DNA from: Bdellovibrionales bacterium
Lineage (GTDB): Bacteria > Bdellovibrionota > Bdellovibrionia > Bdellovibrionales > UBA1609
Length of the DNA stretch: 61,745 nt
Assembly (NCBI GenBank): GCA_007128005.1
Contig: SKYF01000042.1
Location: forward strand, 1 to 61,745
Direction of reading: 5' to 3'
The position numbers and the translations under genes were made by a program. Positions 2,446 through 45,235 of this stretch are shown here, one piece after another. Every line of letters begins with the position of its first letter. Within the stretch, counting starts at the first letter, position 1. The notes below the pieces were generated by a model. The model did no database searches, had not been told where the DNA came from, and was given only the letters and a program-made list of their open reading frames with translations.

Positions 2446-3400
2446 CCCCCTTGGCTACTTCTTGTCTCTGGCTAGGGCCCTCCTGCGCAAGATCGAGCCA
2501 ATCCAAATTCACCTGCAAGCCTGGACTCAAGTCGCTCCTTGTAGCCACCAGCTCTAAGCCCATACCCTCAGCCAAGACCTCGATGGCTTGCCTCTGTTGG
2601 GGCCTATACAACAGTAACAGCGTATCGGCCCCTAAGGCCCCACAGCCCTTGGCCGCCAAAACTTCCGGTCGAGCTCTGAGAATCTTAAGCTGCTCTCGAC
2701 TCTCCTCAGCCAGCAGCGACTCCTCCTCAAGGGCCTGTGCCAGTCTCTTAAAGGCCTGAAGAAACAGCTCCTCTCTGTGCGTCTTTAGGCTTTCCGTAAG
2801 GCGGTTGACGGGCTCCACAAGGGCGTGAAAGGGCCTGTCCTTAAGGAGTTTTAAGTGCTCGTGAGTGGAGATCTTTTTTCCTGTCCTGAGCAGAGCAAAG
2901 TCCAGATCCGCAAAAGGCCAATCCTGAGACTTGACCTGGAAGGGCTGAAAGGAAAACCGGCTCACTCCCCCCACATATTGACCGACCACATCGGCTCCAC
3001 TGGGCTGAGCTTCACCTTCTGAGACTGTCGCCACCTCACGAAACTTGCGCCAAACTTTCTCCGCCCCTAAACTCCGGCTCCAATCTTGAGGCCTTGTCTG
3101 CATCAAGTGACCTGCCACATAGACCATCACAAACTGAGCACTGGAGGCCCCAAAACCGCCTCGTCCCTGGTGGGGGTCGCGAAACTCCATGTCCCAAGCT
3201 GCAAATTGTGCGCTGTTTTGCCGAACCCACTGCCCTGCTGGAGAATGAGGATGAATGCCCTCGCAGCGCCCCTCACCCCCTTGCTTGACATGAAGTTCAA
3301 AGCGGGGCTCGGTCTGAAGAGTGGCACAGAGACCACCTCGAAGGGCCAAGTACTCACCAAATAAAAATGTTTTACTTGGGACACTCAGCTTTATCTGCAA
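2426..3400 (-). CDS. Phosphomevalonate kinase (GHMP family)
   Basis: PSKTFLFGEYLAL N-terminal motif and GRGGFGASSAQFVMV GHMP motif. The ORF is open back to the ATG at 3475. A TTG at 3400 preceded by GGAGACGG gives a 10-nt overlap with mvaA instead of 85 nt, so the start is uncertain. Confidence 0.75.
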   Translation of the reverse strand: MQIKLSVPSKTFLFGEYLALRGGLCATLQTEPRFELHVKQGGEGRCEGIHPHSPAGQWVRQNSAQFAAWDMEFRDPHQGRGGFGASSAQFVMVYVAGHLMQTRPQDWSRSLGAEKVWRKFREVATVSEGEAQPSGADVVGQYVGGVSRFSFQPFQVKSQDWPFADLDFALLRTGKKISTHEHLKLLKDRPFHALVEPVNRLTESLKTHREELFLQAFKRLAQALEEESLLAEESREQLKILRARPEVLAAKGCGALGADTLLLLYRPQQRQAIEVLAEGMGLELVATRSDLSPGLQVNLDWLDLAQEGPSQRQEVAKGGVEYGV

Positions 3401-6487: not shown

Positions 6488-6700
6488 CTCTATTCCCTTC
6501 TCTGACAGGGCGACTTAAAAGAAGTTTTAAGTACTTTTGGAGCCACAATCAGCCGTTTTTTGCAGGCTCAACATCTACACCACAACTGCCCCGGGCTTCA
6601 AGGTGAATTTCTTTCCAGTTTGCGCGACTCTAAACTCTTTATTGCGACGCATTAATCCCAAGGCCGCTGGGAACTGGCCTTACAGAGCCCCCTCTTCTTC

Positions 6701-32699: not shown

Positions 32700-34019
32700 A
32701 TGACAAATTTTATGGCTTTACGAGACATTGCTCCCCCTGATGAAATTCAGAATGACTTTGGTCCCCAGGACTGCCTGGTGGTGTTTGGCGAGCTCTTTGC
32801 CCGAGGCTATGCCAATGGCATTGTCGACGAGGCCCAAAAGCGCGGCATGAAGCTGATCTTTTCCACTGTGGGCCGCAGGGGGGAAAGGGACGAGCTACGC
32901 CCCCTGACCCACGAAGAGCTTAACGAGAAGGCCCTGCAGCCTATCATTAACATTCCGCTTGAGGCAGGCTTTGACCTTGAGCCGGACAGCCAAGGTCAGC
33001 GCCCCGTCGACCAACTCCAAGGGCTCAAACTCAGCGAATGGGACAAGGCCAAAATCAACTGGGACTCCTTGAATGAGTCCCGCTCAAGAGCCACGGAGCG
33101 CTTCCGCCAAAACCTGCGCCATTACTTAAAAGATCTTCAACCGCACATTGAGTCTTCAAGACATGTGGTCTTTGTTCACACCATGGCCGGAGGAGTGCCC
33201 CGAGCCAAAATCGCCATGCCTGCGATGAACAGGGTCTTTAAAGGTCATGGGGACCGCTATGCCTCCAGCGAAGAGTTCTGGGGCTCTGACCTGGGACGCT
33301 TTTGTGCCGCCAACTTTGAGGACGTCACTGCCAACACCTTTGCCCACCTTGTTGAGCTCAGCACAGAGCTTCGTGAAAGCCTTCAACGTCGTGGAGGACG
33401 AGTCTCCTATGTGGCCTATGGCTACCACGGCACAGAAGTGCTTATGGGCCAAGACTACAAGTGGCAGTCCTACTCGCCTTACCTTCAGGGCTTTGCCAAG
33501 CTGAAACTGGAAGGTCTCGCTCAAGAGGCCTGGACCCAAGGTGTTCGAGCCACGGTCTTTAACGCTCCAGAAATTCTCACCAACTCGAGCAGCATTTTTC
33601 TGGGCGTGGAGGTCTCTCTCTACCCCCTTCTGGGAGCTCTGCAAAAGGAGTCGGGACAGGACGAGAGAGTGCAACTCTTTTTAAAAAGCTGTCAGAGTCT
33701 GCTCAAGCCCGAACACTCGTTTGAGGAGATTATGGACTACACTGGAAAGTACTTCTCCTCTGAGACCATTCAAAAGTGGTCTCAGTTTGCAATCTGGCCC
33801 CAGCACAATGGACCCGAGCAAATGGCCCTGATGAGAGAGGCCTCCAGTCATCTCATCAACATGCACCGCGACTCCAAGCAGATGATGACTGCAGAGCTCA
33901 GCGAGCTGGTGTTTCGCGCTACGGGCTTGGCTATGATTCAAGAGACCTTTCAGCCCAAACAGCCTGTTTGGTGGATGGGCCATGATCTGGTGGCCCGCCT
34001 GGCACCCAGGCTGTTCTAG
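32700..34019 (+). CDS. Conserved-looking hypothetical cytoplasmic protein (439 aa)
   Basis: Long ORF with a good coding look, divergent from 31721-32662. No motif I can assign. Confidence 0.55.
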   Translation: MTNFMALRDIAPPDEIQNDFGPQDCLVVFGELFARGYANGIVDEAQKRGMKLIFSTVGRRGERDELRPLTHEELNEKALQPIINIPLEAGFDLEPDSQGQRPVDQLQGLKLSEWDKAKINWDSLNESRSRATERFRQNLRHYLKDLQPHIESSRHVVFVHTMAGGVPRAKIAMPAMNRVFKGHGDRYASSEEFWGSDLGRFCAANFEDVTANTFAHLVELSTELRESLQRRGGRVSYVAYGYHGTEVLMGQDYKWQSYSPYLQGFAKLKLEGLAQEAWTQGVRATVFNAPEILTNSSSIFLGVEVSLYPLLGALQKESGQDERVQLFLKSCQSLLKPEHSFEEIMDYTGKYFSSETIQKWSQFAIWPQHNGPEQMALMREASSHLINMHRDSKQMMTAELSELVFRATGLAMIQETFQPKQPVWWMGHDLVARLAPRLF

Positions 34020-34027
34020 TGGCTGAT

Positions 34028-34059
34028 GCGAAACCGCCAGCCACTTTCGCGCCAGTCAT
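34028..34059. repeat. Copy of the dispersed palindromic motif (gcgaaaccgcc ... ctttcgcgccagtcat)
   Basis: Contains the reverse complement of GGCGGTTTCGC (34028-34038) and TTTCGCGCCAGTCA (34045-34058). It lies between convergent genes at the edge of the AbiE islet. Confidence 0.6.
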
Positions 34060-34085
34060 TATTTAATTGTCAATAATTGCTGATC

Positions 34086-34697
34086 TTATTTTTTAATAAT
34101 TCCTAGGTCGTCAAATCGCTGGGCAACTGCATTTCTAATGCTTTGAGAACTCACCTGATCGCGGAGCATTCTCTTGAAAACTCTGCTCCGTATAGACCCC
34201 AGATCCATTTCTGGGAATTTGTTGAACCTATTTCCCTTCCTGGTCGAAAGATAAAGACAGTCTAGAAGAGCTTTTTCGGCCGAAGCCAACCCGTAACCTG
34301 GTTTTCCCTCAAACCACTCCACTCCCTGCATCATCATCTCCGGCTTTAGTTGGAAAATTTCGAAACCCGCAACAGGAGTGTTCAGACGTCTTCCATGCCC
34401 TGTTGAGGCAACTTGAATAATCTGAGGAATCTGCGAAATGACTCCATGGCGGTGCAAGGCTGAAAGAAACGAAACATAGCCCGCCTCCTTGCCCAAGATA
34501 TGGGGAACTAAACCATAAGGAGTGAAACGCGGATGATGGGGCTGTGCCCAAATGCCCCGCGTAACGAGAGTGATTGTGCCTCGGCTCGCAAGTTGATGCA
34601 GTTTTCTTGATGCAGAGCTAACGCCCACTTCTACCTCAAAAGCAAACTCCCTTGTCGTGAAAGTGGGGCTTTCTAGCAAAAAACGTCTTTCATCCAC
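34086..34697 (-). CDS. AbiEi-family (type IV TA) antitoxin-like wHTH protein
   Basis: FTTREFAFEVEVGVSSASRKLHQLASRGTITLVTRGIWA wHTH, plus a C-terminal domain with AEKALLDCLYLS. It has an 8-nt overlap with the nucleotidyltransferase gene. Confidence 0.7.
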   Translation of the reverse strand: MDERRFLLESPTFTTREFAFEVEVGVSSASRKLHQLASRGTITLVTRGIWAQPHHPRFTPYGLVPHILGKEAGYVSFLSALHRHGVISQIPQIIQVASTGHGRRLNTPVAGFEIFQLKPEMMMQGVEWFEGKPGYGLASAEKALLDCLYLSTRKGNRFNKFPEMDLGSIRSRVFKRMLRDQVSSQSIRNAVAQRFDDLGIIKK

Positions 34698-35469
34698 TAC
34701 TAAGAATCTCCATTATCATAGCCTGCATTTGCTCCCAGGGCTCTGGTCCTTCGTAAAGCCTCCTCTCACTCAGGGGGAGGTACTCCAATACTTGCCCTTC
34801 GTAATCTAGGTAACTAAAAGACATCAGGTTTTTAGCTGCCAGTGACAACTCCTGGGGTGTGAGAAACTCCCTTGTCCTGGTCGTAAGATATCCCGAATTG
34901 TAAAGAATGAATAAATCAAATACGTCCCGCACCTGCAGCTGCTTGCGATAAGCCAGTGCTCTAATTTTTTGAATGGCCGCAGACTCGCCCGTATAATGTT
35001 GGCAAGGATAGGATATTCTTTTATAAGTTCTGGCAATCTCCGGATGAATCATCTCACGGGCAAAAACCTCTTCTGGCTTAGAGTTTCTTCGCGAAAACTC
35101 TACTTTTGTCGGGAACTCCTCTCCGGCCTGGTTTTTTAACCTAAGTCGAAACCTCTGGGTAGTTTGAGTCTGCTTGGTCTTGAACGGGTCATTAACAAGC
35201 AACTCGCGAACACCATAGGACCTCAATTGCCTCAAAAACGAGGGGTCACTGAGAATCTTATATCCATTTTTTTTTAGCGTCTGAACAGACCCTCCAAAGA
35301 CGTCGATATCCATGTCTTCAGAATACCGAGGACTATTCAGAAAGAAGCGAAGGTTGACCCCTCCCTTAAGAACATAGAATTTTGGTTCTGAAACCCTAAG
35401 AAGGCGCTCCAAAAACAAGTAGTGGAAGACCTCCCTTTGTTGTTTATCGTTGAAATAACTTTGTGACAC
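34690..35469 (-). CDS. AbiEii/AbiGii-family nucleotidyltransferase toxin
   Basis: FYVLKGGVNLRFFLNSPRYSEDMDIDV is the family's NTase signature. The region has visibly lower GC than its neighbours. Confidence 0.8.
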   Translation of the reverse strand: MSQSYFNDKQQREVFHYLFLERLLRVSEPKFYVLKGGVNLRFFLNSPRYSEDMDIDVFGGSVQTLKKNGYKILSDPSFLRQLRSYGVRELLVNDPFKTKQTQTTQRFRLRLKNQAGEEFPTKVEFSRRNSKPEEVFAREMIHPEIARTYKRISYPCQHYTGESAAIQKIRALAYRKQLQVRDVFDLFILYNSGYLTTRTREFLTPQELSLAAKNLMSFSYLDYEGQVLEYLPLSERRLYEGPEPWEQMQAMIMEILSSG

Positions 35470-35648
35470 TGAGGAAACCTTCTCCTTGTACTGAGAACAC
35501 TTGTTTGACTGCTTCCCAACGCGGAACAGTTTTATTATGTATTTATAAATACTATAATGTCAATTAAAATACATAATGGAGGCGGCCTGAAAAACTCGAA
35601 CCCTTTTTATTCGCCTTTCAGCCCAACCCTGGCAGGTCTTGGGATTTT

Positions 35649-38000
35649 TTAAGGGGTCTCACAGAGGGCATCGGTGGCGCCGGTGCTGCGAATCATCTCC
35701 CCAAAGACCTTCACCACCTGCATCCGGTCCATTCTCATGGACCACCAAGGCCATCTCATCATAGCAATTCGCCTGAGAGTGGTTGCATCAAACTTGGGGA
35801 TTTCGGCAAAGTTCAATATATAGAGATAGACCGTCTGCGCTCTTTGGTCAGAAAGTGTAACGCACATATCTGCGGCCAGCTTTTTGACAAATCCTGAAAA
35901 GTTGGGAAAGGCCTCCAGAATCTCGCTGTGGGTCAAATGGCTTCCCCCGTCTAAATTGAAGCGGGTAAAAATCACCTCCGAGTAGTGCAACACCATGGAC
36001 ATGGTGTTGATCTCAGCCCGCTCAATAAGGTGTTGAGGACTGAGGTGATAAACCCCTGCGGCAATTAAAATCTCTGCAAACTGCTGCCCCTGATCGCGAG
36101 TCAACTCCTCTTGCAGGTAGTTTTGCAAGCCCGGCATATTGTTCACATGGGGAATCAAAATTCTGAGCAAATTCCGACTCACACAGTCTCTATTGAGCAT
36201 CTCCTCGCCAAAGACATCTATCGGAACAAACCTTGCTCCCGGTGGCCGGCAGGCACGATGGAGATCCTGGTAGAGGCTGTGGGCCATTAGGCCACCAGAA
36301 AACAGCAAGGATAAAAACTCAATGGCCACGGTCATTTCCAAAAGGTTCTCGGCCTCTGAGACCCTTGAAGGATCGGCAATTCCCCGACCCGAGTAAGTGA
36401 ACATATTGGCTTCAAAAAAACTCCTCCGCCCGGAATCCACACTGCGTGGATCCATCACCCTCAGATCAATGCCCAAGGGCCGAAAGTCGGTGTAGAAGTT
36501 TTGCATCTCGTTCTCGGTCAGGCCCGCAAGAGTTCGGGCCCGCTCAAAGTCCTCACTGTAGCCTCGAAACATCAAACGCAGCAGGGACTGCAAAAGGTTG
36601 ACTGCTGAAAGATTGAAAAACCCATGGGCCACTGAGTGTTTTTCAAAGTGGACTTCCTCTACCAAAAAAATTCTGCCCAGCTTTGAGCTAAATAGAGGAC
36701 GCATTTGCCCAATCAGCTCTCTGAACTCCTGAATGGCCAAATCGACTGCCCCCTCAGGCTCCATACGCCCACTGCTGAGCTGATCCAGAGGACTCATGAC
36801 CGAGAAATCCGCAGCACCCTCAACTTCGCCTTCAGAAAACATCCTGTCCAGATAGGATTGAACCACAGACCACCGGGAAAACTCAGCCCCTATACGGTGC
36901 AATTCATAGCCACTGATACCAATGCTGGTGCGGCTCCTCTGGCTGGGACTGAGATTCATATCTCCAAAGACCTTGCTGACCATCTCCCGAGTGACTTTAT
37001 CCAGGGACTCAGCTGTAACCTGTGCGGGCAGAAGCCTGAGCTTCTCCAGAACAGAAAAGACCTCTGCCAGCCGGTCGTATTCTATCACCAAATCGGGTTG
37101 ACTCCTCACTATACCATGCGCCAAGCGCAGTCCATCTTCTACAAGCAAGGTCAAGGCCTCAAGCCCCGGACCATAAAAAACATTGGGGCCCACCAGATCA
37201 TACTGGTAGCGAATCCACAGCCCATAGGTTTCCACAGCTCGTCGAGTGAGTTGAGGCCAGCTCTGTGGCTGAATGGAGTTGCGATCTCCTGCCCCCATCA
37301 TCTCTGCAAATAGGCGCACAAACATCACCCAGTCCTCAGGCTGTCTGGAGCTTGGGAAAGCCTTCTCCCAACCTACAAACTGTCGCAGCTCTACAATCAG
37401 GCGCTCCAAGTGATCAAAGTAAAAAACCCGCTCACCCTCACTGAGAATCTCCGCGAGTTGAACCGCAGAGACTTCAAGGGCTTGACGAGCAGGGGCCGCC
37501 ATCTCTGCAGAGGGATCAAATCCTACAAAGAAACCCATAAAGGGGCGCATTCTCTGGGCTTCCACTTGCACCCTTCGCAGCAGCAAGCGCAGCTTTTTAA
37601 AATCCTCGTGGGAAATGCTGCGCTGATCTCCTCCGACCAAAAATACCTTCAGCTCCATCAGCTCAGTCATCAGTGACAGGGGCAGAGCCCGCTCTCTGAG
37701 AATAAATCGGTGCACAAAGCCTCGCACCTCATCAGCAAGCAACTGGCCCCTAGAGGCTCCCCTGACCCTGGCCACAAAGCCCAATAAAATCTCATCCAGA
37801 TAATCAAAGGCCTCGTCCAACTCCTCCTCACTGATACGCCCCTGAGCAAAGGCCTTGAGTTGAGCATGCAGATCAAATTCCCGGTCTAGAGCCTCGAGTC
37901 GAACTGGCTCCTGAGGTGCTGGGGACTCGAAAATCCTCAGACCACAGCCCCATTGAGTTATAACCAGGGCCAACACTCCAAGAAACCATTTAAAAGACAT
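35649..38000 (-). CDS. Large lipoprotein, paralog 1 of an uncharacterised family (degenerate EF-hand)
   Basis: The start MSFKWFLGVLALVITQWGC (lipobox) at 38000 is preferred over 38027. Paralogous to 39466-41805, for example VRGASRGQLLADEVRGFVHRF vs TRGAESGLYRADEIKRFLQTYF. The C-terminal FNLDGGSHLTHSE aligns with the EF-hand of paralog 2. Confidence 0.6.
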   Translation of the reverse strand: MSFKWFLGVLALVITQWGCGLRIFESPAPQEPVRLEALDREFDLHAQLKAFAQGRISEEELDEAFDYLDEILLGFVARVRGASRGQLLADEVRGFVHRFILRERALPLSLMTELMELKVFLVGGDQRSISHEDFKKLRLLLRRVQVEAQRMRPFMGFFVGFDPSAEMAAPARQALEVSAVQLAEILSEGERVFYFDHLERLIVELRQFVGWEKAFPSSRQPEDWVMFVRLFAEMMGAGDRNSIQPQSWPQLTRRAVETYGLWIRYQYDLVGPNVFYGPGLEALTLLVEDGLRLAHGIVRSQPDLVIEYDRLAEVFSVLEKLRLLPAQVTAESLDKVTREMVSKVFGDMNLSPSQRSRTSIGISGYELHRIGAEFSRWSVVQSYLDRMFSEGEVEGAADFSVMSPLDQLSSGRMEPEGAVDLAIQEFRELIGQMRPLFSSKLGRIFLVEEVHFEKHSVAHGFFNLSAVNLLQSLLRLMFRGYSEDFERARTLAGLTENEMQNFYTDFRPLGIDLRVMDPRSVDSGRRSFFEANMFTYSGRGIADPSRVSEAENLLEMTVAIEFLSLLFSGGLMAHSLYQDLHRACRPPGARFVPIDVFGEEMLNRDCVSRNLLRILIPHVNNMPGLQNYLQEELTRDQGQQFAEILIAAGVYHLSPQHLIERAEINTMSMVLHYSEVIFTRFNLDGGSHLTHSEILEAFPNFSGFVKKLAADMCVTLSDQRAQTVYLYILNFAEIPKFDATTLRRIAMMRWPWWSMRMDRMQVVKVFGEMIRSTGATDALCETP

Positions 38001-39405
38001 AGGTGACCCCCGCCCTGACCCGGTCATTGTGCCGGTACTGAGAGATCAACCCCCCTTCACTCACCGGCTGAGCACCGGCCCCCAAAAGATCTAACCCCAA
38101 ACTCCAAAAGAGTCCGGGCTGAGTTTGGGCTCTTAAGCTGAGACTCAACAAAGAGCCTCGCTCAGAGAAGGAGTATGTGTGGTCCAAGCCCAAACGCAGA
38201 CTCTGAGACTCGCTCCAGGACCAGAGTGAGGAAAGACCCCAAGTCAGGGCTTCCTGAAAAGGGTGCCTCGCGGAGCCCTGCTGCGCCAGACCTCCGGCAT
38301 CCCCTTCAGTGGAAAGCTGCAAAGAAGACTCATCTTCCCAAAAACCCACATAGGAAATCCTAGTATCAATTCCAGGAAGCCCCCAAAAAGCCCAGTTCTG
38401 ACGAAAACCCAGCCCAGGGTAAACCCCTCCACTGGGAGGAGAAAAAAACCACTCACCTGGCAGATCCTGAGTCTCCACCCACTCTCTGGTCAGAGACGCC
38501 CACAACTGACTTCCCTCAGATCCGTAGCCCCACTCCACCCCTGCCAAGCGGTGCCTGTAAACTCTTGGGTGAATCACCACTCGAGTTAAGCCATAGTCGC
38601 TGCTGGCTGCGATATCTAAGACTCCCTCAAAGGGCAGTTGTATTTGGTTGAGGGGCTTATCCGCCACATTGAGACTGATCCAGTGCCCCCTCCCCTTCCC
38701 CTGCTCCTGCTGCCACTTCAATTGACCCACAAAGCTAAATTGGCTCAGAATCTCTGTCAGAGAGGGCATTGCCACTTCATAGTGGATCTCGGTTTGCTCC
38801 TCTCCAAGGGGAATCATTTGACGTGGAGGAGGGCGAAACCAGCGACTTTGCGAGGAAACTTTCCCATCCTCAAGCTCACTTTGCGCCCCCTGATCGGGGA
38901 TAAAAATTGGAGACAGCATCAGATTGGCCGAAAAGGGCCGGGCACCTCCTCTGACAAAGAGACCTGCAAAGCCCTGAGTTTTTCTATCCAACTCATCCCA
39001 CCGGGCCAAGGGCTGCCAAAGACCAAGCTTCCACTCGTCGTCCAAAACACTCCACAAATGCTTACGACGCCCCAGGGAAACCTCTAGAGACACATCCTGG
39101 CTGACTCCCTCTCTGTCCACCCAAAGCACATAGAGCTCGGGCACAGCCAAGTAGTTTTGCTGACTTGAATCCAGGGCAAGCTGACCATCGACCTCCACCA
39201 AGGTCTCTAGGCCAAGGGGCTGAAGGACCCAGCCCGCCTTCAAACCCAATCCCAAACGAGAAAAGCTAGAATCAACCTCTGGATCCGCGGCCTGAGAAAA
39301 AAACTGCTCACCACCCAGATCTAGATAAGAGCCCGCCGTGGTGAGCCCCCAGGCCACCCCGGACAAGAGAGGCGAAGATAAAAGCACAAAGGCTAGAGCT
39401 CTCAT
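37990..39405 (-). CDS. Outer-membrane beta-barrel-like protein, paralog 1 of an uncharacterised family
   Basis: Signal peptide MRALAFVLLSSPLLSGVAWG, alternating-hydrophobic strands throughout, and C-terminal ...NDRVRAGVTYVF (terminal Phe, as in OMPs). Paralog of 41795-43306. Confidence 0.6.
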   Translation of the reverse strand: MRALAFVLLSSPLLSGVAWGLTTAGSYLDLGGEQFFSQAADPEVDSSFSRLGLGLKAGWVLQPLGLETLVEVDGQLALDSSQQNYLAVPELYVLWVDREGVSQDVSLEVSLGRRKHLWSVLDDEWKLGLWQPLARWDELDRKTQGFAGLFVRGGARPFSANLMLSPIFIPDQGAQSELEDGKVSSQSRWFRPPPRQMIPLGEEQTEIHYEVAMPSLTEILSQFSFVGQLKWQQEQGKGRGHWISLNVADKPLNQIQLPFEGVLDIAASSDYGLTRVVIHPRVYRHRLAGVEWGYGSEGSQLWASLTREWVETQDLPGEWFFSPPSGGVYPGLGFRQNWAFWGLPGIDTRISYVGFWEDESSLQLSTEGDAGGLAQQGSARHPFQEALTWGLSSLWSWSESQSLRLGLDHTYSFSERGSLLSLSLRAQTQPGLFWSLGLDLLGAGAQPVSEGGLISQYRHNDRVRAGVTYVF

Positions 39406-39465
39406 GGCCTGATTTTAGCCGCTCTTAGTCGAACACATCAACAGGAGACCCACCCACTATAATAG

Positions 39466-41805
39466 TTACAGAGACTCGTTTTTTGCCCCTGTAAATTTCT
39501 CATAAACACTCCTCAGCTCCCCCAGCATTGAGCTGGAGGCCAACTCCGAGAGAGATGCGAGTATCTTTGCCACAATGAGCCTATCGGCACTGACAGCCCA
39601 AAGCTCAGGCTTTGCCATCCACTCTTCAAAGGCCTCCACATCATCAAAGGGGGTTGTTCCCTCACGAAACAAAAAGGTAAAGAAGGCCCGCACCAGCTCC
39701 TCTTCCGCCTCCACCCCAATGGACTCAAAAAGGTCTACTAAAGTCGGCAAAAACAGCGGGAAGGCCTTAAGGCTCTCTGCCAGGTTGATCTTTCCATCTG
39801 AGTCTCTATCAAAGCGAAAAAAGAAGGTCTCTATGTACTTCATCATGACCATCATCTCAGTCAGTTCGCTGACTGAAACTGGCTGATTGGAGTAGCCCGA
39901 TGGACGAACTGTCAATTCCAACTCTCTCTCATAGCGCATCCATTGGGCAATATCCTGCTCATTTAGATAGGCCTGCAGCTGAGACAAATGATTGAGCAGG
40001 ATATCCCTCCTCGCAAACAAGAGGGGACGCAGACAGGCCACAGGGTCTAAGCCCAGAACCTCACCGGTAGGATCTCGACGTAGGCAGTGTTCTACTGCTT
40101 CCAGCTCGGAAAAGACAAGACGACTGGCATTTAAGCCCGAAAACCCAAAAGTGAGGAACTCCACCGCTTCAAATAAGTCTATCTGCCGGTCTCCATTGCT
40201 TCTGGGCATAAATAGACTGGCATCGCGAAACACCTTGCCTACAAAGCGACTCAGCCCCTGCTGATCATCCTCAGCAAAGCTCACCAGGCCCAAAGCCGCC
40301 AAAAGCGGATGGAGCTCACCTACAACCACCTCCAATTGATTTTTATCTAGCCCCATGACGGCCCCATCTCGCAGATCTTGTGAACTGCAAGCCACGGGAG
40401 AGTAGGCCCGTATCACTTCCTCGGCTAAAAATCCGAGTAGATTCAGTTGGGTCAAATCTTTGTCCGCGTAGGCGGCCAGGGGCTCAGAACTCAACGAGCG
40501 GGGCCACAGCCTCAAGCGCCCCTGAGGATCATGAGCCAAAGCTATGGGACCCAGAGCGAGGCTGCGCAAGCGAGGATGAACCTCTGGGTCACTGGGAGCA
40601 CCCCTCAGCAAAGACAAAATGGACTGCTGGCCCCACAGCCAATCGGCATAAAGAGCCTTCAGCCGAGATAGGCTCCCCTGTGTGATGCCCCCTTCACTCT
40701 CGCTCGACCCTGAGCAGCTCTGTGGGCTTAAGAATCTCTCCGCCAAGACCTGAAACAGCTTCAAGGCCTGGGGGGCAGTGAGGGAAAAAGGCAGCGCATC
40801 CAAGTTCTCAAACTCCACAAGCAGGCTGTCCACTTGCCCCCAAGCTAAAACCTGGTTGGGCTGGCGACTCACCACTGCCTCAGCTAAGTCAAAGCCTGCC
40901 CTGACTGCCAAATCCGCAAGACTCAGTGCCGAAGGGTCGGAACTAGACGGAGCTTGAGTCACCAATCCGGCTAAAAAGCTCGTGTGAAAGGCGCGGGTCA
41001 GAAGCGAAAACAGCGGCCTCCACTCCTGAGCCAAAACCGAGCTCTCACTGCCACCCACAGTTAAGACCTTGAGCCGCAAAGCCAAAGGCAACCAGCGCGA
41101 CCACTGAGCCCCTTTGATGCGGTCGATCTCAATCACCAAGCTCTCCAGGCGATCCCTGGGGTAGGCTATGCCCGACCGAGACAGAGCTTCCCCAACCTGC
41201 TCAGCTGCCGCCAAAAAAGTCTCAAGAAGATCGCCAAGAGCCTGTTCCTCTGCCGGCAGCTGCGGCAGCCGCCCCTGTCCTTGAGCCATCTGCCTCCACT
41301 GGGACATCTGTCTTATATGAGGAAGCAGACTCAGACTGATCTGGCTGAATTCTGCCATTAGCTGACGCAGTCTCACCAATTCAGACTGAGTCAAATAGTC
41401 TGAAGCTCCCCCCAACAAAATAGGTTTTAGAGCCATTATCTCAGCAAAAAGCCCGTCGGTGAGCACCGAAGGTGAAACAAAATATGTCTGCAAAAACCTC
41501 TTTATTTCATCCGCTCTATAGAGCCCGGATTCTGCCCCCCGAGTGACTTGGGAAAACTTATATAAGGTGACATCCAAGCACTGCCAAAACTCCCTCACTT
41601 GAAAGTCTGTGGATTGACCCTTGAAAAATCCTCCCGCCAAAGGAGCCAGGTCCCCCACACAGCCCCCCTTCATATTCAGCACAGGGACTGGCCTGGATAC
41701 AGGAGTTCTGTATTCCGAACAGGACATCTGGAGAGCCGTCCCGAGCAAAAGTAAAACCAAGAGCAGTTTTCGCCTCAGCCAAAGAGCCACTAATTTAGAA
41801 TACAT
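39466..41805 (-). CDS. Large lipoprotein, paralog 2, with a canonical EF-hand Ca2+-binding loop
   Basis: The start MYSKLVALWLRRKLLLVLLLLGTALQMSC (lipobox) at 41805 is preferred over 41832. DRDSDGKINLAE fits the 12-residue EF-hand loop consensus. Confidence 0.6.
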   Translation of the reverse strand: MYSKLVALWLRRKLLLVLLLLGTALQMSCSEYRTPVSRPVPVLNMKGGCVGDLAPLAGGFFKGQSTDFQVREFWQCLDVTLYKFSQVTRGAESGLYRADEIKRFLQTYFVSPSVLTDGLFAEIMALKPILLGGASDYLTQSELVRLRQLMAEFSQISLSLLPHIRQMSQWRQMAQGQGRLPQLPAEEQALGDLLETFLAAAEQVGEALSRSGIAYPRDRLESLVIEIDRIKGAQWSRWLPLALRLKVLTVGGSESSVLAQEWRPLFSLLTRAFHTSFLAGLVTQAPSSSDPSALSLADLAVRAGFDLAEAVVSRQPNQVLAWGQVDSLLVEFENLDALPFSLTAPQALKLFQVLAERFLSPQSCSGSSESEGGITQGSLSRLKALYADWLWGQQSILSLLRGAPSDPEVHPRLRSLALGPIALAHDPQGRLRLWPRSLSSEPLAAYADKDLTQLNLLGFLAEEVIRAYSPVACSSQDLRDGAVMGLDKNQLEVVVGELHPLLAALGLVSFAEDDQQGLSRFVGKVFRDASLFMPRSNGDRQIDLFEAVEFLTFGFSGLNASRLVFSELEAVEHCLRRDPTGEVLGLDPVACLRPLLFARRDILLNHLSQLQAYLNEQDIAQWMRYERELELTVRPSGYSNQPVSVSELTEMMVMMKYIETFFFRFDRDSDGKINLAESLKAFPLFLPTLVDLFESIGVEAEEELVRAFFTFLFREGTTPFDDVEAFEEWMAKPELWAVSADRLIVAKILASLSELASSSMLGELRSVYEKFTGAKNESL

Positions 41806-43306
41806 AGGACACCCCCGCAACAATGCGGTCATTGGCCCGATAGTCTCTTAGAAAACCATCTGAAACCTCTGCGGGCCTTTGATCCCGCAGAGCCAAAACA
41901 TCAGCCTGCAACAACAGGGACCAGGCTTGATCTAAGATCAAATCCCAGCGCAGGGACCACCACCACATGCGTTGAGCAGCTTCATAGGTCAAACGCTGAT
42001 CTGTCAGCAGTCGAGCGGTCCTCAGACCAGAGGTCGAGGCAAAACGCCCCGCATCTGCCCACTTGACTCCCAAGGAGAGGGCCCTTTGATACTGATAGCG
42101 GCGCTCGAAGCGACTGCCTCCACCCGTGGCGAGAGTTCCCATATCCGGAGCATCTCCTCCCTCAAGGAACAGGAAGGAACCATAGGCCGATAACCCTCCC
42201 CATCCAGTTGCCGAGAGATCCAGCTCTGAATAGCCGCTTAAAATCCAGCTTGGCTGCATGGCCTTGTGGATCCAAAATTCCTGCTCTGATTCGGGCTGCG
42301 GAATTTCATGGGTCAAGTTGACCCATGAGGTCCCACCCATTTGCGATGTCATAGCCGCCTCAAAACTGAGGAGCTGATGATAGAGCACCCGAGGGTGGAT
42401 GGGCAAAAACACCCCTCCTTGTTGCCCTTCACTCGCCTCCAATCTGAAGCTCACCGGGAAACCCATCAGCAGCTGGTTCATGGGCTTCAATGCGTAGGCC
42501 GCTTTGAGCAAAACCCCTTGAATCCAATCCCTGTTTTCCAAATGGATGGCCAGCCCGGGATTAAAAATGATATCTGCGTTGTCTGGCCTGACCAGATCGT
42601 AGTGAACGGAGGCCGGCACCCCATTGAAAATCAACTGTTCCTCGGGAGGGCGAAACCAGGGGTTTGAGGAAACAAATCTCTCCCCTTCCAACATCTGGTG
42701 GGGCCCTATCTCAGGGATAAAGACTGGTGATCCCCAAAGCCCCAACTTCCAATCGCTCAACTTCAAGTTCACCCACAGACCCGTCAGCCCGAGGGACTCC
42801 GGGTGGAGCTTTTCATGAAAGGCCCTCGGCTCCCAAATGCCCTGCTTCCAAAAAGCATCCGCAGATGACCACCGGTGTCGCATCCTGCCCACACTCCAAC
42901 TCCACAGCTGGCTTCGATCCCGGTGTTGATAAAACACTTGATAAGGTAAGAGGTAATTGAAGTTCTCCCCTTGAGAAAAAGTGCTCCCCACATCGACAAA
43001 GACAAAGCTAGATCCGGAGCCCCAACCCCGAGTGAGCCGGCCACTGACAGAGCCCCAACGCGCCTCAGCCTGCTCACGAAAACCAAGTCCAGTGCCCGCA
43101 AAGTAGTCCTGCCCTTGCACTGCCAAACTCAGCCCAGAAAACCAGCCCTCGCCCTGACCATCTCGCTCCAAAGCAAGAACAGAACTGGAGAGGGGCAGGC
43201 TGGCTCGCGCCCCACTGGACAAAACAATAAAAATTGAGACAGCGATGCATCCGACAATTTTACCAAGACGAGCGCAGAGCAAGTCATGCACTGAAAATAA
43301 AGACAT
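41795..43306 (-). CDS. Outer-membrane beta-barrel-like protein, paralog 2
   Basis: Hydrophobic leader. Shares SPVFIPEIG / NPWFRPPE / IHPRVLYHQL with paralog 1 (SPIFIPDQG / SRWFRPPP / IHPRVYRHRL). C-terminus is ...NDRIVAGVSYVF. Confidence 0.6.
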   Translation of the reverse strand: MSLFSVHDLLCARLGKIVGCIAVSIFIVLSSGARASLPLSSSVLALERDGQGEGWFSGLSLAVQGQDYFAGTGLGFREQAEARWGSVSGRLTRGWGSGSSFVFVDVGSTFSQGENFNYLLPYQVFYQHRDRSQLWSWSVGRMRHRWSSADAFWKQGIWEPRAFHEKLHPESLGLTGLWVNLKLSDWKLGLWGSPVFIPEIGPHQMLEGERFVSSNPWFRPPEEQLIFNGVPASVHYDLVRPDNADIIFNPGLAIHLENRDWIQGVLLKAAYALKPMNQLLMGFPVSFRLEASEGQQGGVFLPIHPRVLYHQLLSFEAAMTSQMGGTSWVNLTHEIPQPESEQEFWIHKAMQPSWILSGYSELDLSATGWGGLSAYGSFLFLEGGDAPDMGTLATGGGSRFERRYQYQRALSLGVKWADAGRFASTSGLRTARLLTDQRLTYEAAQRMWWWSLRWDLILDQAWSLLLQADVLALRDQRPAEVSDGFLRDYRANDRIVAGVSYVF

Positions 43307-43392: not shown

Positions 43393-44190
43393 TCACTGCA
43401 TCGCAGCAAGCCACTTTGAAATCTGCTCCGCCACCCATGGCCCATCGTCCAAAGTCAAATCGTGTCCCGCCCATGGGTGCTGAACAAGTGGCCAGCCAAA
43501 CTCTTTGTGTATGGCCTGACTGCAGCTGGGATCCACCATCCGATCGCCTAAGCCAGAGAGCAGAAGAATGGGGTGAGGATGATCCCAAGTTTCGATTCTA
43601 AAGCGACTGGCGGCCATGACTTGTTTGAGCACGTTGAGACGCCTAAAGGGGTGCTTGAGGTAGATTTGCCCCCACTCCCGAGCCACTTGTTCATGAACCT
43701 CCAGGCGATGGGAGATGATTTTTAAAACCCGCCTCTCTCTCTCCACAGGATCTCTTGTGGCCACAGAACGCAGAAATTGGCGCCACATCTCAAGACGCAG
43801 GCGGTGATGAGGTGGACTCAAACCCCTTAAACTGGTGTTCATCAAAACCGCCAAGGCCACTTGCTCTGGGGCCTGGCGCACCCACTCAAGACCCACCATG
43901 GCTCCTAAAGAGACCGCAACAACCGCCACGGGCTCTGCAGGCGAAATCCCCGCCTGCTCAGCTTTCACCGCCCAGCTCTTACGCACTTGAGCGCAAATTT
44001 CTGCCACCCGACTGGGACTGCTCTGTAAATAAAACTCTCCGGAACCAGGCAGATCAAGCCCATGAACTTTTGTATCTTTAGGCAGCCCTGCGTCTATCAG
44101 TTGCTGGAGCAAAACATCGGGAAACCCCCCCCAGTGGGCGGACTCCCTGGCCAACCCCCGCAGCAATATCCAATGCCTAGGCCTAAGCAT
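43393..44190 (-). CDS. Alpha/beta-fold hydrolase
   Basis: RHWILLRGLARESAHWG N-terminus. Nucleophile-elbow-like AVSLGAMVG. C-terminal WAGHDLTLDDG. The ORF is open to 44220 and an internal Met at 44190 is likelier. Confidence 0.7.
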   Translation of the reverse strand: MLRPRHWILLRGLARESAHWGGFPDVLLQQLIDAGLPKDTKVHGLDLPGSGEFYLQSSPSRVAEICAQVRKSWAVKAEQAGISPAEPVAVVAVSLGAMVGLEWVRQAPEQVALAVLMNTSLRGLSPPHHRLRLEMWRQFLRSVATRDPVERERRVLKIISHRLEVHEQVAREWGQIYLKHPFRRLNVLKQVMAASRFRIETWDHPHPILLLSGLGDRMVDPSCSQAIHKEFGWPLVQHPWAGHDLTLDDGPWVAEQISKWLAAMQ

Positions 44191-45235
44191 ACCATAGCTC
44201 CAGGGCGGCTGCTCTCTCACGAGCTAGATCTTCTTCTGCCAAGTAAAACCAGCTCTCCGGTGCCAGCAAGCTGCGCTGAACAAAATCAAAGAGGTTGAGA
44301 TGGCGGCGCAAAATTCTCTCTCTGCGATGGGGCTTGACCGGATCAAAGGCACCAAAGCGTGAGAAGAGCTGACTTGGATTTTTTCTCAACCACATCCAGG
44401 AGCCCATCTCCAGGGTCCAGGGAATAAAACCCCGCTGAACCTGCTGCCCCTTTTCCTCTTGAACCTGCTGCTGATGCTCTAAGTAAAGGTAGTCCCACAG
44501 GTCTCCGTGGATTGTATACTGACGACTGACCGGCTCAATGGCATAAAAATGATGGGGATAGCTATGATCGAAAAGGCCTTTAAGGGCATGAATCTGTCCG
44601 ATGTGGGGACAGGGACGACGAGAGTAGGCGTAGGGAAACCACATCCGATCTCTAGAGCCAAAACCAGAGTGCACATCAATGGCCATCGCCAACTGAGAGG
44701 GAAAAAGCCAGCGACGGACCACCTCACAGAGGGCTTGGGCCTCAGGCTCTAGCTCGCCATAGCCTCGAAACCAGGGCAGCTGAGGAGAAATACTCTGTCC
44801 CTGGTACAGACGAGCGGCACTCAGCGGTCCTTCCGCCTCCACTGGAGAGTTGCGCATCAAATCCACCCCCTGCCCGTTGGAGCGCCGGCGCAAGACGATG
44901 CCCACTGGATTTACAATGGGCATAAAGACCATGCGACTGCTCTCCAGCCGCTGCTGAAAACTCTTATCCCACTTTATAAGACTCGCCACAGTGCTCAGAT
45001 GGGAAAGAACAACTTCCGCCCCTATCTTTTCCAAGCCGTGGACGCCGCCAAAAAAGCCCAGAGCAGGCGCTTTGGGATCCGTGCTTCCCACCTGAACCAC
45101 ATAGAGGGGAAAACTTCTCTCTTCATAAGAAACCTGCTTGATAATTTCCACTCGGGCCCAATCACCAAGCTCTTCAATAAGAGCCTCTAACAAATCCATC
45201 TCGGGAAAACGCTTGCGAGCTAAAAACTTGGGCAC
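44183..45235 (-). CDS. M14-like metallopeptidase (DUF2817/succinylglutamate-desuccinylase-like fold)
   Basis: FFGGVHGLEKIGAEV (Zn-binding HxxE region) and IDVHSGFGSRDRMWFPYA motifs. Confidence 0.6.
   Translation of the reverse strand: MPKFLARKRFPEMDLLEALIEELGDWARVEIIKQVSYEERSFPLYVVQVGSTDPKAPALGFFGGVHGLEKIGAEVVLSHLSTVASLIKWDKSFQQRLESSRMVFMPIVNPVGIVLRRRSNGQGVDLMRNSPVEAEGPLSAARLYQGQSISPQLPWFRGYGELEPEAQALCEVVRRWLFPSQLAMAIDVHSGFGSRDRMWFPYAYSRRPCPHIGQIHALKGLFDHSYPHHFYAIEPVSRQYTIHGDLWDYLYLEHQQQVQEEKGQQVQRGFIPWTLEMGSWMWLRKNPSQLFSRFGAFDPVKPHRRERILRRHLNLFDFVQRSLLAPESWFYLAEEDLARERAAALELWYA

Follow-up and report, generated by a model that had tools for sequence, protein, structure and literature searches.

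A tandemly duplicated pair of overlapping genes encoding a predicted outer-membrane beta-barrel and a repeat-containing EF-hand lipoprotein in Bdellovibrionota

The stretch of DNA analysed in this study (the window; 61,745 nucleotides (nt) of contig SKYF01000042.1 from a Bdellovibrionales bacterium) carries, between positions 35649 and 43306, four consecutive minus-strand genes that form two copies of one unit, each made up of a gene for a predicted outer-membrane beta-barrel protein and an overlapping gene for a large predicted lipoprotein. Both families exist only as this ordered, overlapping pair, which is inherited vertically, belongs to the core of the predatory phylum Bdellovibrionota and is a signature of it. 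Neither family has been described in the domain libraries or in the searchable literature, although a machine composed of a barrel and a lipoprotein is in itself of a known kind. It is tentatively proposed, with a confidence that falls a little short of even, that each unit forms an obligate outer-membrane complex of barrel and lipoprotein in a ratio of approximately 1:1, of an undescribed kind and working by the mechanism set out below.

The upstream, "type 1" copy consists of barrel gene A1 (41795-43306, 503 amino acids (aa)) and lipoprotein gene B1 (39466-41805, 779 aa from the ATG at 41805), and the downstream, "type 2" copy consists of A2 (37990-39405, 471 aa) and B2 (35649-38000, 783 aa from the ATG at 38000). 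The barrel coordinates are those of the list of open reading frames (ORFs), while for both lipoproteins the second ATG was taken as the start, the versions given by the ORF finder being longer (39466-41832 and 788 aa for B1; 35649-38027 and 792 aa for B2). An earlier reading of the letters and their translations, referred to here as the sequence-only reading, had recognised these four genes as two copies of one unit, and the ORF list and BLASTP agree: A1 and A2 share 29% identity across 380 aa (E 4e-29), and B1 and B2 are colinear from end to end at 22% identity (E 3e-27). The figure of about 30% identity given in that reading is too high for the lipoproteins. All of the motifs that it listed were found again, namely SP(I/V)FIP, WFRPP, IHPRV and NDR..AGV(S/T)YVF in the barrels and LQMSC, TQWGC, RGA...ADE and L.GG in the lipoproteins. 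Family profiles built from relatives matched A1 (E 2.9e-122), A2 (E 3.5e-118), B1 (E 1.8e-164) and B2 (E 5.1e-186) in hmmsearch, and no other ORF in the window. A public metagenome-assembled contig (GCA_007123365.1, SKLF01000075.1) matches the window, and the same four genes are called there, without Pfam assignment.

The two genes of a unit are joined in a characteristic way. Junction 1 (41795-41833, minus strand, AATGACCGCATTGTTGCGGGGGTGTCCTATGTATTCTAA) comprises the last 12 codons and the stop codon of A1 with the ATG of B1 inside them, giving an overlap of 11 nt, and junction 2 (37990-38028, minus strand, AATGACCGGGTCAGGGCGGGGGTCACCTATGTCTTTTAA) shows the same 11-nt overlap between A2 and B2. 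In the six pairs found first, which include those of the window, the barrel invariably ends in N-[DN]-R-[VI]-x-x-G-x-x-Y-V-F-stop, and the ATG of the lipoprotein gene falls within the Tyr-Val codons of the barrel (TATGTNTTYTAA), producing the 11-nt overlap in all six. An overlap of the same form is present in all relatives, including more than 118 genome stretches among the matches listed. Because this ATG is common to all relatives, the true starts of B1 and B2 are almost certainly, as judged from the sequence, the second ATGs at 41805 and 38000; the upstream ATG that gives rise to the longer ORFs is a by-product of the barrel Asn-Asp codons (AATGAC). In the public record (L003, 7574 and 11406), B1 is called from the upstream ATG, with 788 aa and a 38-nt overlap, and B2 from the conserved ATG, with 783 aa and an 11-nt overlap, and the public start of B1 is probably mis-called. 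The invariant junction sequence thus offers a simple and specific marker with which to find the family and to correct start-codon annotation.

The distribution of the pair was surveyed with a degenerate 39-nt junction pattern against one genome per GTDB species; by our own estimate of its information content the pattern holds approximately 40 bits, so that roughly one match should arise by chance. The more than 118 genome stretches among the matches listed nearly all bear Bdellovibrionota names (Bdellovibrio, Pseudobdellovibrionaceae, Bacteriovoracaceae and metagenome-assembled genomes (MAGs) named "Oligoflexia"), and the module is present in every cultured Bdellovibrio genome among them; complete genomes of B. 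bacteriovorus (Bd16 and s4) and of Bdellovibrio sp. HCB117, HCB-162, HCB-110 and HCB337 are included. Among these matches, every downstream ORF that was neither broken nor truncated by a contig end encodes a lipoprotein of the same family, and all 71 complete downstream proteins can be aligned as a single family. The pairing, whose absence elsewhere would have spoken against the sequence-only reading, is thus conserved in other genomes. No shuffled or solitary intact copy was seen among 45 complete pairs and the tandem loci.

Protein searches gave a consistent picture. A word-indexed protein search returned four barrel relatives at 26–28% identity, each with an overlapping lipobox gene behind it that is a homologue of B1 and B2; for the lipoprotein it returned no relative, even when a six-sequence profile was used. 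These sparse matches reflect the index rather than rarity of the family, because an exhaustive profile search and the DNA pattern gave hundreds of relatives; with a six-sequence barrel profile, exhaustive HMMER searching yielded 1,015 clusters (50% identity) at E<=1e-3 and 637 at E<=1e-30.

A few of the matching stretches are labelled as belonging to other phyla while carrying the junction and a family-type lipoprotein: L032 and L114 (both from a MAG labelled Streptomyces griseus), L054 (Saprospiraceae) and L077 (Lysobacteraceae). These names likely result from mis-binning or mislabelling, the alternative being a wider distribution of the pair. Two copies look degenerate and may be pseudogenes or assembly errors: L054 (junction 3137-3175) has a full barrel followed by an 11-aa ORF, and L060 (junction 6584-6622) has a 97-aa barrel remnant followed by a 311-aa lipoprotein fragment.

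Tandem second pairs also occur elsewhere (L016, L060, L068, L069, L100 and the contig of L063/L012), and they allow the duplication to be placed in time. A1 and B1 are nearest to the upstream copies of the other tandem loci and A2 and B2 to the downstream copies; for barrel and lipoprotein alike, each copy type is a set of orthologues shared among genomes. Upstream copies among themselves share a mean identity of 33% for barrels and 29% for lipoproteins, and downstream copies 43% and 34%, against 24% and 21% between upstream and downstream copies. Identity within a copy type being higher than between types, the duplication predates the divergence of these genomes, and both genes were always carried along. 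The tandem duplication had been called ancient from the window alone, and this is upheld in that each copy has closer relatives in other genomes than its paralogue in the window. The distances among barrels and among lipoproteins are also strongly correlated (r = 0.90 over 45 complete pairs, a value reached in 0 of 999 Mantel permutations).

The first protein of each unit is, as had been suggested, a predicted beta-barrel outer-membrane protein. Members of the family are 414–553 aa in length and show the general features of outer-membrane beta-barrels, with a signal peptide, an all-beta model and a C-terminal aromatic beta-signal. In A1 the signal peptide ends in …SSGARA before S and the C-terminal beta-signal is NDRIVAGVSYVF; in A2 the signal peptide ends in …GVAWG before L and the C-terminus is NDRVRAGVTYVF. 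An AlphaFold2 model built from a six-sequence alignment has approximately 18–20 long strands and no helical N-terminal domain; it is of low confidence (predicted local distance difference test score (pLDDT) 55, predicted template modelling score 0.58), but it is a barrel, so that the absence of a predicted transmembrane barrel, which would have spoken against this assignment, was not found. Foldseek matched the model, with probability 1.0, to the 18-stranded porins C. jejuni MOMP, AlgE and OccK/OprD and to 16-stranded general porins of the OmpF type (E 2e-7 to 1e-4, template modelling (TM) scores 0.33–0.54), a structural similarity that, on this model, is a generic barrel match and not a specific one.

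Across 94 barrel sequences, conservation peaks in three places, these being the C-terminal beta-signal and two insertions. One of these, helix-containing and located after strand 5, reads GRK..WS.LD..W.LG.WQP...QGLTG, and the other, after strand 7, reads SP.FIP..GP...S.SRWF..P; the conserved blocks fall within the non-strand insertions 111–148 and 163–193 of the model and correspond in the window to 42827-42889 and 42644-42730 (A1) and to 39010-39072 and 38827-38913 (A2), all on the minus strand. If the usual topology is assumed, the model would place these insertions in extracellular or lumen-folding loops, L3 and L4.

The second protein of each unit is a predicted lipoprotein, in agreement with the sequence-only reading. 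The lipobox is LQMSC in B1 (41719-41733, minus strand) and TQWGC, followed by GLRIFESPAP, in B2 (37944-37958, minus strand), and of 127 family members at least 116 have a lipobox that a regular expression recovers, while nearly all have one by eye. B1, B2 and their relatives fit the bacterial lipoprotein pattern, a signal peptide that ends in a lipobox of the general form [LVI][ASTG][GAS]C, and are predicted to be lipidated. The segment after the lipidated Cys often reads C-x-x-K-h-G-E-x-P-P, B2 having CGLRIFESPAP. Two Cys pairs are conserved in the family; B1 has both (C49/C76 and C574/C591), and B2 lacks the first.

Residues 45–170 and 171–300 of the lipoprotein are homologous repeats (HHalign 93%, E 3e-7) with a unit of approximately 115 aa, each bearing a K..h.GG....h...E/W motif. 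The corresponding K..L..GG motifs lie at 41377-41430 and 41020-41073 in B1 and at 37599-37652 and 37257-37310 in B2 (minus strand). Two such motifs are found in proteins of 700–880 aa and four in proteins of 980–1,130 aa, B. bacteriovorus included, while a relative of at least 1,616 aa that is cut by the contig end (L004, 4461-9308; Logan contig SRR10511996_164) has at least nine and is put at about double the longest complete members in length; across the family, lipoproteins measure between about 700 and more than 1,600 aa. An AlphaFold2 model from eight sequences is all-alpha along the whole length, with an overall pLDDT of 49 and values of 70–85 at residues 50–315 only. The idea that the N-terminal repeats are degenerate EF-hand pairs, prompted by 12-residue loops with a terminal Glu and by short paired beta-bridges seen in the model, found no support, the repeats reaching an HHalign probability of only about 1% against calmodulin or troponin lobes or against the protein's own EF-hand.

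A canonical C-terminal 12-residue EF-hand loop, D-x-[DN]-x-[DNSG]-...-E, flanked by a helix on either side, is present in 66 of 71 members. The aligned EF-hand region claimed earlier for both lipoproteins holds in part: B1 has a canonical loop (DRDSDGKINLAE, 39775-39810, minus strand), with ligands at positions 1, 3, 5 and 12 as in 66 of its 71 relatives, as well as a pseudo-EF loop (RSNGDRQIDLFE, 40168-40203, minus strand), whereas the loop of B2 (NLDGGSHLTHSE, 35922-35957, minus strand) is degenerate in sequence. A profile of 71 lipoproteins searched against PDB sequences matched GCAP1 (E 7e-6) and ALG-2 (E about 2e-5) through profile positions 649–702, returning EF-hand proteins only and no SusD, and the HHalign probability against calmodulin is 89%. 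EF-hand families were the only recurrent Pfam match, in up to 19 of 53 lipoproteins scanned singly; B1 scored 16.3 bits against EF-hand_7, below the cut-off of 30, and B2 had no match. The lipoprotein is a helical, disulfide-containing, extracytoplasmic protein with a variable number of repeats and a conserved C-terminal domain bearing one EF-hand loop of the Ca2+ type. It differs from EF-hand proteins in that a length of 700 aa to over 1,600 aa holds one canonical loop, with no EF-hand similarity detectable in the remainder. An envelope lipoprotein with a single structural EF-hand is known in E. coli MltB/Slt35.

None of A1, A2, B1 and B2 matched Pfam, NCBIfam or PADLOC above threshold. A profile of 94 barrels had no match among 177,635 PDB sequences, even at E<=10, and the same barrels scanned singly against Pfam gave one weak Porin_O_P match and nothing else. 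The claim that neither protein belongs to a known family therefore stands, with no Pfam or NCBIfam assignment and no PDB relative besides those of the lipoprotein EF-hand. Full-text literature searches found no paper on either family; a Bdellovibrio CASP16 target met in the literature is an unrelated cyclic-nucleotide-binding protein. In public records, relatives of the lipoproteins are named "hypothetical protein" or "EF-hand domain-containing protein", and barrels also "hypothetical protein". Several barrel members (P0013, P0014, P0166; L039, 4370-5806) are named "transposase" in RefSeq by the Prokaryotic Genome Annotation Pipeline. This name is very likely a propagated annotation error, because no NCBIfam or Pfam model lies behind it and because these proteins start with a signal peptide and end in a beta-signal.

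The sequence-only reading compared the unit with SusC/SusD and Slam, a likeness that holds for overall architecture and no further, since every testable feature of membership of SusCD, Slam, AlgEK and LptDE is lacking. As in SusC/SusD (RagA/RagB), the barrel gene comes first and a gene for an all-alpha lipoprotein second, pairs are multiplied as units, and the lipoprotein is here proposed to cap the barrel. SusC, however, is a TonB-dependent receptor of about 1,000 aa with a plug and a 22-strand barrel, whereas the barrels here have 414–553 aa (about 470–500 aa in the window) and lack a plug, a TonB box and a TonB-dependent-receptor domain, Pfam matching no such domain in the 94 sequences; Pfam finds no SusD/RagB domain in 53 lipoproteins, the EF-hand and 115-aa repeats are not features of SusD, and SusC/SusD belongs to the Bacteroidota. 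AlgE/AlgK and the Wzp/OPX systems share the fold of approximately 18 strands, as in AlgE, and an alpha-helical repeat lipoprotein as partner, but there is no sequence relation to AlgE/AlgK, no Alginate_exp or Sel1 match and no PDB sequence match, and the gene order is opposite to algK-algE. In Slam and the type 11 secretion system (T11SS), an outer-membrane barrel gene likewise stands beside a lipoprotein gene and co-occurrence is conserved. Slam has a DUF560 14-strand barrel and N-terminal TPRs, neither of which is found here, the low-confidence model having more strands, and the C-terminal beta-barrel domain of Slam cargo is not seen in the all-alpha lipoprotein model, itself of low confidence.

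LptD/LptE and RcsF-OmpA share with the present pair the idea of a lipoprotein segment held in or at a barrel. Neither the LptD domains (beta-jellyroll and 26-strand barrel) nor those of LptE have a Pfam or NCBIfam match here, the present lipoprotein is four to eight times larger, and here the partners are co-encoded by overlapping genes. The best structural matches of the barrel, OprD/Occ and Campylobacter MOMP (E 2e-7 to 1e-5, TM 0.40–0.50), share long inward-folding loops with it, but they have no sequence similarity to it and work without a dedicated lipoprotein.

Upstream of A1 in the window lie an alpha/beta hydrolase gene (43393-44220) and a gene for an M14/DUF2817-type carboxypeptidase (44183-45235), both on the minus strand and without signal peptides. 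These two genes overlap by 38 nt and precede the pair in many Bdellovibrio genomes also. Recurrent neighbours in general are an alpha/beta hydrolase directly upstream, an M14 carboxypeptidase, an HglS-like protein, an HD-domain protein and, downstream, a convergent dCTP deaminase. No convincing terminator was found between the two pairs of the window. The surroundings give the impression of a chromosomal neighbourhood that has stayed stable, not of a functional operon.

In the complex proposed here, a barrel of some 18–20 strands and its own cognate lipoprotein would be translated from one mRNA with translational coupling. The view that they are stoichiometric partners draws on the way in which the genes overlap, keep a strict order, and have been duplicated and have diverged together. 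The two long conserved barrel loops would form a fixed constriction or docking site, since loops of this kind in porins fold into or over the lumen, and the C-x-x-K-h-G-E-x-P-P segment after the lipidated Cys may act as a tether that docks the lipoprotein at these loops. The repeat body could then cap the barrel, or offer a platform for binding on it, at the cell-surface side, in a geometry like that of SusD or LptE, with Ca2+ stabilising the C-terminal domain, and the two paralogous pairs might serve different ligands or partners.

Several points weigh against this proposal. Physical contact between the two proteins is deduced from the genetic evidence, and a correlation of distance matrices should also arise between any two neighbouring genes that are inherited vertically. 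The junction survey demanded the junction ATG in its pattern and did not demand a long lipobox ORF behind it. In many lipoprotein members position +2 after the Cys is occupied by Asp, a residue that leads to inner-membrane retention in E. coli, a rule not established for Bdellovibrionota, and the evidence fits a surface-facing and a periplasm-facing lipoprotein alike. The low confidence of the barrel model (pLDDT 55) makes its strand count and loop topology approximate, and the poor lipoprotein model (pLDDT 49) gave a best Foldseek E of 0.2, so that its fold could not be compared.

Four other explanations of the pair were considered. It is unlikely that the barrel is an export porin, a polymer channel served by a helical-repeat lipoprotein that faces the periplasm and reaches towards an inner-membrane machine, even though barrel-plus-lipoprotein secretion pairs are established, AlgK/AlgE being one. 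Porins paired with OPX proteins are described as another (PMC9603273). In the structural comparison AlgE belongs to the best matches of the barrel (TM 0.45–0.52), and the very variable length of the all-alpha repeat lipoprotein recalls the variation of the TPR scaffolds in BcsC, PgaA and PelB; the AlgE match is no better, however, than those to unrelated 18-stranded porins, Alginate_exp, Sel1/TPR, Poly_export and SLBB domains went unmatched in 94 barrels and 53 lipoproteins, and clustering of neighbours in approximately 120 loci revealed no recurrent polysaccharide or other envelope gene (synthase, glycosyltransferase, OPX or polymerase), the neighbours being cytoplasmic enzymes and dCTP deaminase. 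An uptake channel for peptides or fragments of the cell wall, which the cytoplasmic M14 carboxypeptidase and alpha/beta hydrolase would then process, is very unlikely. In the window, the M14, hydrolase, barrel and lipoprotein genes follow one another in that order on one strand, as they do in 9–13 of 54 loci with sufficient upstream sequence, cultured Bdellovibrio included, and the conserved loops, of an in-lumen type, would suit a specific channel. Most loci nevertheless lack these enzymes, 86 nt containing a promoter-like site lie between the hydrolase gene and A1, the cluster holds no inner-membrane transporter, and the unrelated housekeeping genes nearby suggest simple conserved synteny.

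The remaining two explanations take the barrel and the lipoprotein to act apart. The cargo known for Slam carries a beta-barrel domain at its C-terminus, in contrast to the predicted all-alpha lipoprotein, and the barrel has neither DUF560 nor an N-terminal TPR domain and is modelled with about 18–20 strands, not 14; a Slam- or T11SS-like translocon, in which the barrel only flips or exports the neighbouring lipoprotein and the latter acts alone, for example as an adhesin or binding protein, is accordingly thought quite unlikely. Its appeal lies in the strict adjacency of barrel and would-be cargo, their duplication as a unit, and the conserved motif right after the lipidated Cys, which could be an export signal. 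Such adjacency has a precedent, T11SS barrels typically adjoining their cargo genes (10.1101/2024.09.26.615229). The 1:1 coupling by overlap nevertheless suggests stoichiometric partners over an enzyme and its substrate. That a general porin and an unrelated lipoprotein merely share an operon as independent proteins would fit the fact that contact is deduced and that adjacent genes co-diverge in any case. It is very unlikely, given a stop/start overlap that is invariant over class-level divergence with proteins at approximately 20–30% identity, the constant duplication of both genes, the lack of shuffled or solitary intact copies noted above, and barrel conservation that is strongest in loops and not in strands.

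If the proposed complex of barrel and lipoprotein is real, it would add to the short list of barrel-lipoprotein machines, probably with a new helical-repeat fold that includes a structural EF-hand. A further-reaching idea, ventured here as a distinctly unlikely one, is that the pair is a phylum-specific core machine at the predator-prey interface, for example a Ca2+-dependent docking device or conduit with the repeat lipoprotein reaching the prey envelope, in which the lipoprotein would have a new fold and the paralogues different specificities; this would be a new class and not a variant of SusCD, Slam or AlgEK. The Bdellovibrionota attract study as "living antibiotics", yet much of their envelope proteome is without annotation, the present two-gene module of approximately 1,000 clusters being covered by no model in Pfam or NCBIfam and by no relative of solved structure. 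As B. bacteriovorus is genetically tractable, the function of the module is directly testable.

Directly downstream of B2 lie an AbiEii toxin gene (34690-35469, minus strand) and an AbiEi antitoxin-like gene (34086-34697, minus strand), together a type IV toxin-antitoxin or abortive-infection pair. The GC content is lower here, at 0.464 over 34001-36000. The AbiE pair looks like a local insertion, because related loci carry dCTP deaminase or other genes at this place. A defence island, suggested by the adjacent AbiEi and AbiEii genes, was considered and rejected, there being no PADLOC matches and the barrel-lipoprotein pair lying elsewhere in a conserved housekeeping neighbourhood. The AbiE pair is adjoined by a gene for a FabMG-family protein (PF22046; 32700-34019, plus strand), which has relatives in 10 of the fetched loci and is part of the conserved neighbourhood.

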